This document shows positions 2,522 through 18,489 of a DNA stretch of 64,000 bases, piece after piece. The position numbers and the translations under genes are program-made. How positions within the stretch are numbered: the first letter of the stretch is position 1; every line of letters starts with the position of its first letter. The stretch comes from a virus (lineage: Duplodnaviria; Heunggongvirae; Uroviricota; Caudoviricetes): IMG/VR virus record IMGVR_UViG_3300028886_000047; one strand, written 5' to 3'. Below the pieces are notes generated by a model. The model was not told the DNA's origin and did no database searches. It worked only from the letters and a program-made list of their open reading frames with translations.

Positions 2522-4434
2522 TTATAAATCATTATTTTCAAACTTATTTATAGTATCTATCACCAATTTCATATTAGGTTCAATATATTTTTCCTCAAAA
2601 CAACCGGCTACAGAACGACAAGTATCATTTCCATCAGTACGAGTCTTAAAGCGGTATTGTACTTCAGTTTCTCCGTCAGGTATATATCGTTCTGAATATA
2701 TAATATATGAGAAAAGTCCATCCAAATTAATCTGATTTGTTAACATTTTCAATATCTTGGATATAATTGTTTAAATTAAATTAGTTAGTTACTCTAATTC
2801 CAATTATACCTCTCTATAAGTTTCCTTATAGTTGAGACTAAATATTCATTGTAAAATTTATTTATTATAATAGTCGTTATAAAACTTAAAAACAAAATGA
2901 TAAGTTTGAGGTTGGATTCCTTTACAAGTTCTTCTAATTAAATTAGAATTTATTCCAAGTTCTCTTTCTGCCTCCGCGGCTGAAGAAAATTCTTTAATAA
3001 AATTTCCCTCTAAATCCAATTGAATTACATAATTAGATTTATCTATTTCTACATTTTCATTAGAATATCTCCAAATAAATCCTCCGCAACTTTTTTTTCT
3101 TCCCCTACATACCGCATTTAAATTACCTTTATCGAGTCCTAATTCTCTAGCAGCAGTAGCTCCACATTCCCATTCTTTAATAAAATTTCCAAATTTATCA
3201 TATTGTTTAACAGGTTTTCCTTGAATATTTATAATACTCCTTCTAACTTTTTCTTTAGTTTCTTCCGTTCGGGTAATACCTGTTAATTTTTTCGAAATTT
3301 TCTTTTTTGTTTCTAAGTCTCTTTCTTTTCCAATGATTTTTTCGGCTCTTTTACGAATAGTTTCTTCTGTAGGATGAGGTACATAGTTATCTTCTCCTCC
3401 TTCAGTTAGATTAGTTAATGAAAATCCCCACGTTTTTATTTGAGAAATCCAATATTTTTCTAACCATTTCCATTCGTCTTTATTTTCAAAAATCATTGAA
3501 TCTAATTCTTCTATTATAATCTCGTAGCCTTCATTTAATTCTTTATTTATCCAATTTAAAGAATATCTATTAGTTTTACCTAATTTTTTAACTTTTCTAG
3601 CATCACATAAATGACCTTGAAGTCTACGTTCTAAAGTTTGAGTAGTCTTTCCAACATACCTAATGTCATTAGGATTTCTAGTGGAAGCTAAAGTGTAAAT
3701 AAAAACTTTATACATATTTAATACATTTTAAAATTATGTATTAAATATATTTATTTTTTTGACTATCTCAAAATTATTTTTTACTTTTTTTACAACATCC
3801 CCATTTCAAATAAAGGAACTACCTTTATTTTACGTTCCCGATATGGAACTAGTCGTTACACGCGCCCGAAAATTATAATATTATTTTCTGCTTGGCTCGG
3901 TATTCCCATGATAGTTATTATTTTAGGGTTCACCGAATTAGGGGTAATACAGGCAAAATATTTACCAGTCGTCCACATTCTATATTCTGGATCGATATCT
4001 GTTCCAAAATTTTCAATATGAGATATAAATACTACAGTTAAGTTATCACGTAATTCTTGACAAGTTTGAATTAAATCATAATAATTCTTACTCATTACAC
4101 TAAACTTTTCATATCCTTTAACCAATGCATTCTGGAAAGTCTCATTTGAAAGTAAGTAATTGCAATCATCCAAACAAATAACCTTAATTTCTGGTCTGGT
4201 TTTAGATACTGCTTTAAGTATTTTCTCAATTTGAGAATAACTGTTGCTAATTAACCAATTTCCTTTTAACTTACCATCTTCTACAGATACTTTAACATAC
4301 TTTTTCCTAAATCCAGGTATTTGCAACTGTTTATTAGTACAACTAACAATAAAAGTTTCTTCGGGATTCAGGTACTTTAAGCTTGTGCTTTTTCCGCTAT
4401 TTGAAAGTCCTACTAATCCAATTATATTTGACAT
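2522..4434 (-). CDS. AAA_24-like P-loop ATPase, spliced: join(3964..4434, 2522..2749)
   Basis: Walker A GLSNSGKST, Walker B ICLDD; splicing gives ...WTTG|KMLTNQINLDGLFSYII, the expected continuation of this family. Confidence 0.8.
2750..3963 (-). mobile_element. group I intron in the ATPase gene
   Basis: Exon ends in U (ACTGGU|), intron ends in G (...GAUAUUG|AAAAUG); P AAUUCGGUGAA, Q AAUACCGAGCC, R GUAACGACUAG and S-like AUAUUUAGUCU are all present. Confidence 0.85.
2858..3715 (-). CDS. GIY-YIG homing endonuclease with NUMOD3/NUMOD1 repeats
   Basis: FIYTL...IRYVGKT..LERRL.GH N-terminus; C-terminal KPVKQYD..GNFIKEW..A..AAREL repeats; lies inside the intron. Confidence 0.85.
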   Translation of the reverse strand: MYKVFIYTLASTRNPNDIRYVGKTTQTLERRLQGHLCDARKVKKLGKTNRYSLNWINKELNEGYEIIIEELDSMIFENKDEWKWLEKYWISQIKTWGFSLTNLTEGGEDNYVPHPTEETIRKRAEKIIGKERDLETKKKISKKLTGITRTEETKEKVRRSIINIQGKPVKQYDKFGNFIKEWECGATAARELGLDKGNLNAVCRGRKKSCGGFIWRYSNENVEIDKSNYVIQLDLEGNFIKEFSSAAEAERELGINSNLIRRTCKGIQPQTYHFVFKFYNDYYNK

Positions 4435-14127: not shown

Positions 14128-15327
14128 TTATATTGTAATTTCATCAATTGAAATTCTTTCTTCATATTTCCAAATATATCCGTAGGCTTGAGATACATTT
14201 CCATTACAACAATTATTTATATGAGAAGTTCCAGTTTTTATATCTTTATTCTCATTCTATAAAAACCATTCTCTTATTTCATTTGCACTATAAAAATATC
14301 TTAAAAATTTTCCAGATAAAGAATACTATCCATATTTTTTAGAATTTCCATTACGAATTGTTTCTATTCCTAGTTGTTTTAGTACTTTACCTACTGTATC
14401 CTATCCAAATCCTATAAATTCAGAGATTTCTTTTAAATTATATCCTTCATTGTAAATTTTAAGTATTAATTGAGGATTATAAGTTTTCTTTTCTTTGTTA
14501 AAAGATTTAAATTCCTATGGATTTTTATTATATTCTTTTAATTCATACTTAGTGCTTGGGAGATTGTAATTTTTGCACCATTTTTTAATAGCGTTATCAG
14601 TTACTCCATACATTCTTCCAATTTCACGAAAAGATTGAGTCTAGATCAATTCTAATAACTTTTCTCGTTCCGGTCTCTCAACTTTTCTTTGTGATTTAGA
14701 AGCACATTCAACACATTTTGCACCTTTAGTAGAAACTTCTCTTCCACAATCAGGACAATAATATTTAACTCTTTCTTTATGTAATTCTAATACATTAGTA
14801 TCTTTTTCTTTTTTGTCTGATTCTTTATATCCCTCTTTTTTCTCACGGACTGTATTACGTTCCTTAAACTTAATATAAGAATCTTTTAGTTTCTATGTAT
14901 AAGAAAACATATTAGTAATTAAATAATCTTCTGCTTTATTATAATTAGTTTGTCCATTTGTCGGAGGTTCTAATCTTAATGTTTTAGAAGTTTTACATTC
15001 ATCTACAGGAACAACATAAACTTTTCCATTAAAATAAGTAGCAAAATAATCTATTTCTTTATTAGAATATGTATATCTAATAGTTTCTTTAGTATTAGTA
15101 GTTTGACAAGTAGTACTAAAACTAAATGCATCTTCCCTTATTTTTCCATGGTCATTAACATAATTAGAACATTTACATTGGATTCTATAAAGATGTTCTC
15201 CATCATCTGCTATAAAATCATACTTTGCTCCATTTCCATATGGAATTGAACATTCAAAACCTAGCTAAATAAAAGATGTAATACACTATAACTCATTTGA
15301 GTTACCCAACATTTGTGTATAATCCAT
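14128..15327 (-). CDS. PD-(D/E)XK homing-type endonuclease with Zn ribbon, HTH and NUMOD1-like domains; 8 in-frame TAGs
   Basis: 400 codons if TAG is sense: ...YDFIADDG..LYRIQCK (PD-(D/E)XK), CPDCG...CVEC, SFREIGRMYGVTDNAIKKW, AYGYIWKY. Confidence 0.8.
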
Positions 15328-15639: not shown

Positions 15640-15676
15640 TGATCCTGAGGGAGCTCCAATCTCTAACCTGCTAATT
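15640..15676 (-). pseudogene. 3' half of a split tRNA
   Basis: AA-TTAGC-AGGTT-AGAGA-TTGGAGC-TCCCT-CAGGATC-A; pairs with the 5' half at 16523..16556. Confidence 0.7.
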
Positions 15677-15713
15677 AGTTAATAAAGATTAGACTATTTT
15701 TCCCTCAGATTTA

Positions 15714-16331
15714 TCACTTTCCTATTTTAGTTTCTTCGTCATATTTATGATAACGATAGTAACTTCTTGCTCCGTTTTTATTTTTAGATTTGTAGGTATC
15801 TAATTGTGAATCACAATTTGGACATATACATCTTAAATTATCTCTTCTATTGTTAGCAGCATTACCATCAATATGATCAATTATAAATACAAGAGGTTTT
15901 TTATTCCATTCTGGTTTCATTCCACAAATTGCACAAACTCCATTTTGTTCTTTGATAATATCTTCCTTGAAATTCCTTGGGGAATAATTTGCTCTCATAA
16001 TAGATTCATCACCATCTAACAAGAGTTGGTATTTTTGTTTGTGTTGATACTCGTGCTGACACGAATGACTACAAAATTTTCCAGTAGTTCCCTGGTATTT
16101 TTTAAATTCTTTTCCACAATTTTTACAAATTACTTTCTCTCCAGTTCCTTCATTAAAAGTTTCATTAGGATTAATTATTCTACGTTGTGGGAGTTCTATT
16201 CCTATCCTTTTAGCTACTTTTTTAATGTTTGCTCCAGAACAACCATATCTTCTACCTATTTCTTCATAACTGACTTTCTCTACATTTATAAGTCTTTCAA
16301 GTTCTTCTTTTTCAGATTCCCATTTTGACAT
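15714..16331 (-). CDS. HNH endonuclease with N-terminal HTH and Zn finger
   Basis: CAICG...IIDHIDGNAANNRRDNLRCICPNCDSQ; CKNCG...FCSHSC. Confidence 0.9.
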   Translation of the reverse strand: MSKWESEKEELERLINVEKVSYEEIGRRYGCSGANIKKVAKRIGIELPQRRIINPNETFNEGTGEKVICKNCGKEFKKYQGTTGKFCSHSCQHEYQHKQKYQLLLDGDESIMRANYSPRNFKEDIIKEQNGVCAICGMKPEWNKKPLVFIIDHIDGNAANNRRDNLRCICPNCDSQLDTYKSKNKNGARSYYRYHKYDEETKIGK

Positions 16332-16365
16332 ATTTTTAAACGAAGGGGTTTTAATCTTCGTACTA

Positions 16366-16396
16366 CAAATATATAATTATGGTTCGAAAAATCAAA
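16366..16396 (-). promoter_or_regulatory. Bacteroidota housekeeping-sigma promoter upstream of the HNH gene
   Basis: TTTG-N19-TATATTTG matches the -33/-7 consensus TTTG-N19-21-TAnnTTTG; a hairpin ACGAAG...CTTCGT follows just before the ATG. Confidence 0.7.
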
Positions 16397-16427
16397 CTTA
16401 AACTTTGAATTTAACAAATTTTAATAG

Positions 16428-16516
16428 TACTCCAGGCGGGACTCAAACCCACAACAGTATTCCTACTGAATGCTTTAGAAGAGCATGGCGGTCATTCAAT
16501 TACGCTTTACTGGAGC
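16428..16516 (-). tRNA. tRNA-Arg(TCT) with long variable arm
   Basis: GCTCCAG/CTGGAGT acceptor; ATGCT-CT-TCT-AA-AGCAT; extra arm CAGTA-GGAA-TACTG. Confidence 0.8.
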
Positions 16517-16522
16517 AAATTA

Positions 16523-16556
16523 AGTCAGCTGCTCTATGCAGTTAAGCTACAGGACC
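16523..16556 (-). pseudogene. 5' half of a split tRNA
   Basis: GGTCCTG-TA-GCTT...GAGC-A-GCTGA-CT, then breaks off 6 nt before tRNA-Arg. Confidence 0.7.
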
Positions 16557-16565
16557 ATGTTTTAG

Positions 16566-16654
16566 TGCATCCTCTGGGAGTCGAACCCAGCTCGTTGGAT
16601 TAAAAGTCCAAGATAATCGTCTGTTTCCAGCACTTACCGATATACGAAGGATGC
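16566..16654 (-). tRNA. tRNA-Lys(TTT) with enlarged D-loop
   Basis: GCATCCT/AGGATGC acceptor; TTGGA-CT-TTT-AA-TCCAA; about 14-nt insert in the D-loop. Confidence 0.85.
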
Positions 16655-18416: not shown

Positions 18417-18489
18417 GGCCTCTAGCCAGATTCCAACTGACGACATACGGAGTACAAATCCGCTATTCTAGCAACTGAATTATAGAGGC
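18417..18489 (-). tRNA. tRNA-Thr(TGT)
   Basis: GCCTCTA/TAGAGGC; GCGGA-TT-TGT-AC-TCCGT; atypical T-loop TTGGAAT. Confidence 0.8.

Follow-up and report, generated by a model that had tools for sequence, protein, structure and literature searches.

The 64,000-nt stretch analyzed here (IMG/VR record IMGVR_UViG_3300028886_000047; Caudoviricetes), hereafter the window, is low-GC (about 30%) DNA of a crAss-like rumen phage whose late genes are TAG-recoded. The minus strand of the window carries a tRNA array in which one tRNA gene, designated X, is interrupted in the anticodon loop by an insert that holds a second, complete tRNA gene with the anticodon UCU (the inner tRNA), a promoter, and an HNH endonuclease gene. 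The two halves of X are separated by 846 nt, in agreement with a sequence-only reading of this DNA, which had placed about 845 nt between them. Direct reading of the minus strand from 16800 to 15400 gave the following order: an odd tRNA of 90 nt (16654-16565), 8 nt, the 5' half of X, 5-6 nt, the inner tRNA, the promoter, a hairpin in the 5' untranslated region (5'-UTR), an open reading frame (ORF) of 205 aa, 37 nt, the 3' half of X, 6 nt, tRNA-Glu, and tRNA-Pro. The components of the split locus are listed below.

16522..16556, minus strand: 5' half of the split tRNA gene X (half proper 16556-16523), comprising the acceptor strand, the D arm, and the 5' anticodon-stem strand
16517..16521, minus strand: left-junction spacer of 5 nt between the X 5' half and the inner tRNA
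16428..16516, minus strand: inner tRNA(UCU), 89 nt, with a long variable arm (Rfam, fold, and covariation)
16366..16396, minus strand: Bacteroidota-type promoter (-33 element TTTG at 16396-16393, 19-nt spacer, -7 element TAtaTTTG at 16373-16366)
16341..16360, minus strand: conserved 5'-UTR hairpin (5-bp stem and 10-nt loop) just upstream of the HNH start codon
15714..16331, minus strand: HNH homing-endonuclease gene, 205 aa (Pfam and PHROG)
15677..15713, minus strand: right-junction spacer of 37 nt, A/T-rich, following the stop codon
15640..15676, minus strand: 3' half of X, comprising A37 A38, the 3' anticodon-stem strand, a 5-nt variable region, the T arm, and the acceptor strand

The 5' half of X has the D-loop motif TGC and ends with the first two or three bases of the anticodon loop (C32 U33, perhaps U34). 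The last 2-4 bases of the right-junction spacer are possibly the original loop bases (C35 U36) A37 A38, and the 3' half contains the T loop TTGGAGC (with G56) and the discriminator A.

Our analysis confirmed that X is a split tRNA gene. The halves pair with each other at 7 of 7 acceptor-stem and 5 of 5 anticodon-stem positions; the earlier statement that they pair fully is correct in number, although one pair in each stem is G·U, so that the pairing is not fully of the Watson-Crick type. Within the halves, the D stem has 4 of 4 pairs and the T stem 4 of 5 (one A·C). All 12 inter-half pairs were recovered in only 1 of 200,000 shuffles of the X halves. A scan of the whole window for split-tRNA geometry found two matches where about 2.6 were expected by chance, and pairing alone is therefore not decisive; the second match, at 32415/31510, lies in coding sequence and was dismissed as chance. 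X was recognized as a real tRNA by three further features. Its halves sit flush in the array (8 nt past the preceding tRNA and 6 nt ahead of tRNA-Glu), the joined halves scored 23 for likeness to real phage tRNAs (random joins, -0.1 +/- 3.1; genuine tRNAs of the window, 16-28), and X has a rare swap in one tertiary pair, with C19 (next to G18) in the D loop and G56 in the T loop, which is shared with the bona fide tRNA-Thr of the window. This well-scoring tRNA-Thr(UGU) (18417-18489, minus strand) has C-G instead of G-C at 19:56 (D loop TGC, T loop TTGGA), and the swap was also seen in the T loops of L005 and L009 (L numbers denote loci compared with the window). ARAGORN missed split X in its intron mode and called the joined halves only below its default threshold; this relaxed-threshold call and the T-stem A·C suggest mild decay, of which the three G·U pairs of X are a further sign.

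The junction bases of X permit a complete 7-nt loop with the anticodon UCU (join at 34|35), UAU, or UAA. The anticodon, considered not recoverable in the sequence-only reading, can thus be narrowed to three fitting loops, among which it is still ambiguous. We favor tRNA-Arg(UCU) as the most likely identity of X, with UAU or UAA as possible alternatives. The 3' half at L007 resembles both the X 3' half and exon 2 of the tRNA-Arg(UCU) at L022, which supports X as an arginine tRNA.

The inner tRNA(UCU) scored 34.6 bits with the Rfam tRNA model (cut-off 29), and its minimum-energy fold was a cloverleaf with an extra arm, the long variable arm having 5 bp and a GGAA loop cap. We aligned the window copy (16428-16516, minus strand) with family members at L005 (326-413), L012 (769-856), and L036 (1545-1632), the last being a 410-kb phage contig. 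Covariation was found in all five helices: 15 of 25 pairs were changed on both sides, 96.8% of the cells were paired, and none of 500 shuffles was as good. The members come from rumen phages, have the anticodons UCU and ACG, and share a 3-bp D stem; G1·U72 is present in both UCU members. A scan with the D-arm motif returned 21 matches, of which one was a true member. By anticodon, this is a real and unusual family of type-II-like tRNA-Arg, whose charging identity is presumed; a type-II architecture is unusual for an arginine anticodon. Two other arrangements involve long-arm tRNAs. At L009 (2300-2335), a complete but distinct tRNA-Arg(UCU) is fused to a 5' fragment of a long-arm Arg tRNA, and at L012 (683-767), the HNH ORF extends 44 nt into a complete long-arm tRNA(CCA). 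Both arrangements add to the signs that tRNA genes break in the vicinity of these nucleases.

The 205-aa ORF matched Pfam HNH_3 (28.1 bits, cut-off 24.8) and the PHROG HNH families (best E = 1.7e-22). Its domain matches were confined to HNH/Endonuclease VII, with no GIY-YIG domain among them. The protein consists of a helix-turn-helix-like N-terminal module of about 55 aa, near-identical across clades, followed by zinc-binding CxxC pairs and the HNH core; His153, Asn160/161/165, and the two CxxC pairs are invariant across clades, and the last metal-ligand position is Asp in the clade of the window and His in the others. A search of PDB sequences returned nothing significant for this enzyme. 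In the standard code, the reading frame is open, without any in-frame TAG. At L007 (2194-2808), we found an 80%-identical HNH gene with two in-frame TAG codons, and one nuclease family appears to exist in both standard-code and TAG-recoded versions.

The promoter, TTTG-N19-TAtaTTTG, ends 34 nt ahead of the HNH ATG, and the element recurs with a spacing of 18-19 nt in 12 related loci. We take its consensus to be that of Bacteroides sigma-AB promoters. A 5'-UTR hairpin occurs at the equivalent place in 12 loci; in L006, both strands of the stem have changed and pairing is preserved. The hairpin might control the nuclease at the level of translation or stability. The Rfam tRNA match, the promoter match, and the Pfam and PHROG HNH matches together bear out the previously proposed composition of the insert, namely an intact tRNA-Arg, a host-type promoter, and an HNH gene.

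Protein-guided scans for relatives of the HNH enzyme recovered 24 loci (2 viral and 22 metagenome). All 24 were located in phage tRNA arrays and nearly all adjoined a tRNA, the HNH gene usually lying 30-180 nt downstream; location in a phage tRNA array and linkage to tRNAs across relatives are thus as in SegB-type systems. In the HNH protein tree, the eight enzymes with an upstream tRNA-Arg(UCU) formed one clade, that of the window enzyme (support 96/94), whereas these upstream tRNAs belong to at least four unrelated backbones. The published crAss-like genome cr116_1 contains an HNH copy with 61% identity, located 9 nt upstream of a fifth tRNA-Arg(UCU) backbone, and partner tRNAs with the anticodons UCC, UCA, and CUA mark other HNH clades. 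As judged from these comparisons, the anticodon association follows the lineage of the enzyme and not that of the tRNA. DNA homology among the HNH modules extends from 4 nt past the upstream tRNA to the stop codon, which indicates that the module also moves without a tRNA. The HNH genes of the UCA clade are followed by a conserved, structured-looking non-coding stretch (L001 3589-3785, L013 3086-3200, and L016 1786-1900), for which Rfam gave no match in L001, the one of the three that was scanned.

A sister element showed the same organization around glycine tRNAs. In L002, L018, and L020, a native 73-nt tRNA-Gly(UCC) is split by a cassette of a 79-nt tRNA-Gly(UCC), the same promoter, and a related HNH gene. 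The intact allele of the split tRNA is present in L009, which agrees with the 5' half up to and including position 30 and with the 3' half beginning at A37; relative to this allele, exactly six bases (31-36, including the anticodon) are replaced by the cassette. In L015, the 79-nt inner tRNA-Gly(UCC) occurs as an ordinary array member without an HNH gene (95.5% identity), and the Gly element is thus polymorphic for presence and absence. L002 and L018 have in common an 849-nt block with 94.6% identity, bounded exactly by the ends of the split tRNA and set in unrelated flanks. Differences between the split Gly alleles are restricted to positions remote from the junction, namely in the acceptor stem and T loop, and the acceptor pairs are compensated; such a pattern would be expected if homing had entered different alleles and co-converted short tracts. 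The complete 183-kb sister genome has 28 tRNAs, of which the inner tRNA alone is a tRNA-Gly(UCC). The tRNA and the HNH gene evidently moved as one unit in the Gly element, and we infer the same for the window.

Comparison of the junctions across loci revealed a constant right end and a variable left end. Besides the window, a tRNA 3' half starting from A37 A38 follows the HNH gene in L002, L005, L007, L010, L018, L023, and L024, which represent three clades, and the HNH stop codon TAA overlaps A37 A38 in L002, L007, L018, and L024. On the left, the spacer is 5 nt in the window, about 21 nt in L002, and about 200 nt in L005, and L007 and L010 have no 5' half. In L005, a perfect 7-nt acceptor complement directly follows tRNA-Glu; as a putative 5' remnant it was discarded, since no convincing 5' half could be built from it. 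The variable left junctions would suit a passive scar, in which illegitimate recombination or duplication scrambled the array, the HNH gene is a mere neighbor and possibly inactive, and nothing is currently mobile. Fragments are indeed common in these arrays: L007, L008, and L010 have orphan 3' halves, L009 contains a 5' fragment, and the neighboring tRNA-Lys shows a 17-nt insertion. In addition, the final metal ligand of the HNH enzyme is Asp instead of His in the clade of the window. We nevertheless consider a passive scar unlikely: the same nesting with the same-anticodon logic occurs in two HNH clades, the Gly block ends sharply at the split-tRNA ends in two contexts, the right junction always lies at A37, and the HNH ORF of the window is intact and about 80% conserved across five or more contigs.

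More distant HNH modules were found exactly at 36|37 of tRNA(CAU) and tRNA(CUU) in L023 (2347-3177) and L024 (223-1045), respectively, with no base lost, no inner tRNA, and a suppressor tRNA(CUA) just upstream. In L023, a subthreshold Rfam match to an HDV-like ribozyme (RF02682; 37 bits against a gathering score of 44; E = 0.0013) begins directly past the 3' end of the split tRNA (3178-3241) and could set the 3' end of the split-tRNA RNA. The exact insertions in L023 and L024 bring in a second explanation, that the insert is a ribozyme-free intron: RNase P and RNase Z would free the inner tRNA, the ends would be trimmed, and a host or phage RNA ligase would reseal the loop. X would then be functional, and the inner tRNA would serve as cargo and at the same time as a handle for processing. 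The X junction bases suffice to reconstruct a complete UCU loop, the acceptor stems of the split Gly alleles are perfect and compensated, and Lak megaphages are described as having a tRNA whose "enigmatic" intron is a tRNA in its own right (PMC6784885). If true, a bacterial virus would possess a ribozyme-free, protein-dependent tRNA intron that is also a mobile cassette of a tRNA and a nuclease.

The structure of the insert argues against such processing. Its ends do not coincide with the ends of a tRNA-like fold: a gap of 5 nt separates the last possible exon base from the start of the inner tRNA, and about 750 nt lie between the end of the inner tRNA and the 3' half. Cleavage by RNase P at the inner tRNA would therefore leave five extra bases on the X 5' half, and about 750 nt of mRNA would still be joined to the 3' half, where no tRNA-like or other recognizable processing structure marks a cut. 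The sister element lacks the anticodon and thus cannot give tRNA-Gly(UCC), and the isoacceptor within the insert would make a rescued X redundant. No ligase domain was found among 30 ORFs of the window, and no RtcB- or Rnl2-type ligase was found in the complete 183-kb sister genome; a search for Rnl1 (PF09511) was uninformative, as the controls also gave no match. Reading of the junctions likewise revealed no leader/trailer complementarity or bulge-helix-bulge motif of the archaeal split-tRNA type, the 5' half running straight into the inner tRNA. The more speculative proposal of the sequence-only reading, that RNase P cutting at the tRNA-Arg 5' end allows the halves to be re-paired and ligated, accordingly found no support, and the check for RtcB or RNA ligase genes that it suggested came back negative within the scope just given. 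We regard the ribozyme-free intron as very unlikely.

A degenerate or unusual group I intron, with a homing endonuclease and a tRNA-like peripheral domain, was considered in view of the introns present in tRNAs of these phages, namely those of the window tRNA-Leu and the L022 tRNA-Arg(UCU), which have a common 3' core. In the L022 tRNA (1808-2383), an insert of about 500 nt that ends in G follows position 36; a related HNH module lies behind the tRNA, and the 3' part of the insert matches the 3' core of the window tRNA-Leu intron (about 36560-36700). As in a group I intron, the last base of the X 5' exon is U. Rfam gave no group I match at E < 1 for the insert in X, but it also gave none for the L022 insert or the window tRNA-Leu intron, both genuine-looking, and the missing match is therefore weak evidence. 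More telling is the content of the insert, in which neither a P3-P9 catalytic core with a G-binding site nor an omega-G was found. The 15 nt that precede the X 3' half contain no G, which removes a candidate omega-G, whereas the tRNA-Leu and L022 inserts do end in G. Outside the ORF and the inner tRNA, the insert has only about 95 nt of A/T-rich promoter and 5'-UTR sequence plus 37 nt, too little for such a core; the promoter and 5'-UTR segment is also present in free-standing copies outside any tRNA, and the insert shows no likeness to the L022 or tRNA-Leu intron core. A group I origin of the insert is thus extremely improbable.

Taken together, the insert in X is probably a DNA-level homing cassette that carries a substitute isoacceptor tRNA, SegB-like in its logic and inserted in the X anticodon loop; most likely, the insertion killed X. 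This view builds on the anatomy of the locus, the family-wide association with tRNAs, and the sister element with its empty allele, and it agrees with the intact HNH domain, the ORF open in the standard code, and the promoter of its own. In the proposed mechanism, the enzyme of the window clade would cut genes of the tRNA-Arg(UCU) type, to which X presumably belonged, in or near the anticodon loop of cassette-free co-infecting phage genomes. The break would be repaired from the cassette-bearing genome, the presumed donor, and the HNH module, here together with the adjacent isoacceptor, would be copied in. Repair of the right end through homology of the X 3' half would produce the constant right junction just before A37, and joining of the left end, through the X 5' half or less precisely, would produce the variable left junctions. 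X would be destroyed in the process, and the co-transferred inner tRNA would restore the lost decoding; the insertion would thus cost the phage little, which could explain the spread of the cassette.

Several observations weigh against this homing-cassette interpretation. The X junctions fit a perfectly preserved loop (CUU|CUAA), and the exact insertion at 36|37 without loss in L023 and L024, the most intron-like of the set, is what an intron would look like. The acceptor-stem differences among the split Gly alleles are fully compensatory and could mean selection on a still-functional split tRNA. The inner tRNA lies outside the homology of the HNH modules, and its counterparts in the closest relatives have diverged or are unrelated; hence, at this locus, it is the nesting alone that points to co-mobility of the tRNA and the HNH gene. 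An intact (empty) allele of X itself was not found among the IMG/VR relatives searched, so that the X anticodon and the exactness of the insertion are provisional; exact-pattern IMG/VR scans with either X half or the predicted intact anticodon arm returned nothing or one chance match in coding DNA. The search for empty alleles in relatives, as the sequence-only reading had advised, therefore succeeded for the sister Gly element (L009) and not for X. Its simplest proposal, a mobile tRNA and HNH unit that homes into tRNA anticodon loops with its own tRNA, gained from the sister Gly element, the L009 allele, and the 849-nt block in two contexts; it has to be qualified in that the HNH module also moves without a tRNA and that the unity of the two in the window is deduced.

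If the homing-cassette interpretation is true, such cassettes would offer a way to exchange a tRNA allele for another of different structure, here a canonical tRNA for a tRNA-Arg with a long variable arm. This would be relevant to codon supply in phages and possibly to escape from host tRNA-cutting defenses.

Other features of the array surround the split locus. The 90-nt tRNA at 16565-16654 (minus strand), called tRNA-Val(gac) by ARAGORN, is really a tRNA-Lys(UUU) with about 17 extra nt between the D and anticodon arms. As it stands, it received no tRNA score from Rfam; removal of 15-19 nt at the extra stretch gave a tRNA-Lys call at the default threshold. The extra nucleotides may have been left by a rearrangement of the array or may represent an unusual expansion. 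On the other side, 40 nt after tRNA-Pro, a 399-aa ORF (14128-15327, minus strand) is open only with TAG read as Gln (8 TAG codons). Its endonuclease-like appearance, with a zinc ribbon and a helix-turn-helix motif shared with the N-terminus of the HNH protein, suggests a second nuclease gene directly behind a tRNA. The OmpA-like gene neighboring the locus had no relatives in IMG/VR (its protein does have close relatives elsewhere), and megablast of the locus region against GenBank phages gave no match.

Among known systems, the closest in logic is SegB, a free-standing homing endonuclease in the tRNA cluster of phage T4 that cuts tRNA genes, neighboring tRNA genes being carried along (PMC2330249). 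Enrichment beside tRNAs has been described for its homologues, as has SegB-driven amplification of tRNA genes (PMC13096335). The locus in the window resembles this system in having a free-standing endonuclease gene in a phage tRNA array, in the presumed targeting of tRNA genes and co-inheritance of neighboring tRNAs, in an ORF end that abuts or overlaps the next tRNA, and, as seen for the sister Gly element, in presence/absence polymorphism among relatives. SegB is, however, a GIY-YIG enzyme and the window enzyme an HNH enzyme, which makes the latter a functional analogue and not a family member. SegB recognizes a generic T-loop motif at the 3' end of many tRNA genes regardless of isotype, whereas here enzyme clades track one anticodon and the break lies in the anticodon loop. 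Here, moreover, the target persists as two halves around the cassette, with an isoacceptor nested inside. Our results would extend the idea of homing endonucleases reshaping phage tRNA clusters from SegB to an HNH family found in rumen and gut phages, crAss-like ones included. The papers searched contained no description of two of its features, the enzyme clades tied to a single anticodon and the broken target nested around an isoacceptor cassette.

HNH endonucleases, F-TflI/II/IV, are also mentioned from the tRNA region of phage T5 (PMC2330249). They share with the window enzyme the HNH type and the location among phage tRNA genes and are only distantly related to it; T5-like phages gave matches of 33% identity. 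We know of no nested or split target tRNA described for these enzymes. A nested tRNA has been reported in Lak megaphages, in which one tRNA forms the intron of another (Devoto et al., 2019, PMC6784885). The two cases are alike in a tRNA nested in the anticodon region of a phage tRNA, in Prevotella-type hosts, and in the occurrence of alleles with and without the insert. The Lak insert is a tRNA alone, no nuclease gene being mentioned where that study describes these introns, whereas in the window a promoter and a 205-aa HNH gene follow the nested tRNA, which is, unlike that of Lak, not flush with the exon ends.

Group I introns occupy the anticodon loops of bacterial tRNAs, at 34|35 in tRNA-Leu(UAA) and after position 36 in tRNA-Arg(CCU) and tRNA-Ile(CAU). 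The insert in X occupies the same region of the loop (34|35 or 36|37), and group I introns may also carry homing endonucleases; it differs in having no ribozyme core or omega-G and an ORF with its own host-type promoter. Endonuclease insertions into protein genes offer a further parallel. The Allomyces atp6 element brings a duplicated 3' gene end that replaces what it disrupts, and the Aeh1 mobE insertion splits nrdA, which still works. In these cases, as in the proposed cassette, a selfish nuclease is tolerable because the disrupted function is supplied or preserved; the difference is that those are protein genes, whereas here a whole substitute isoacceptor tRNA is carried.

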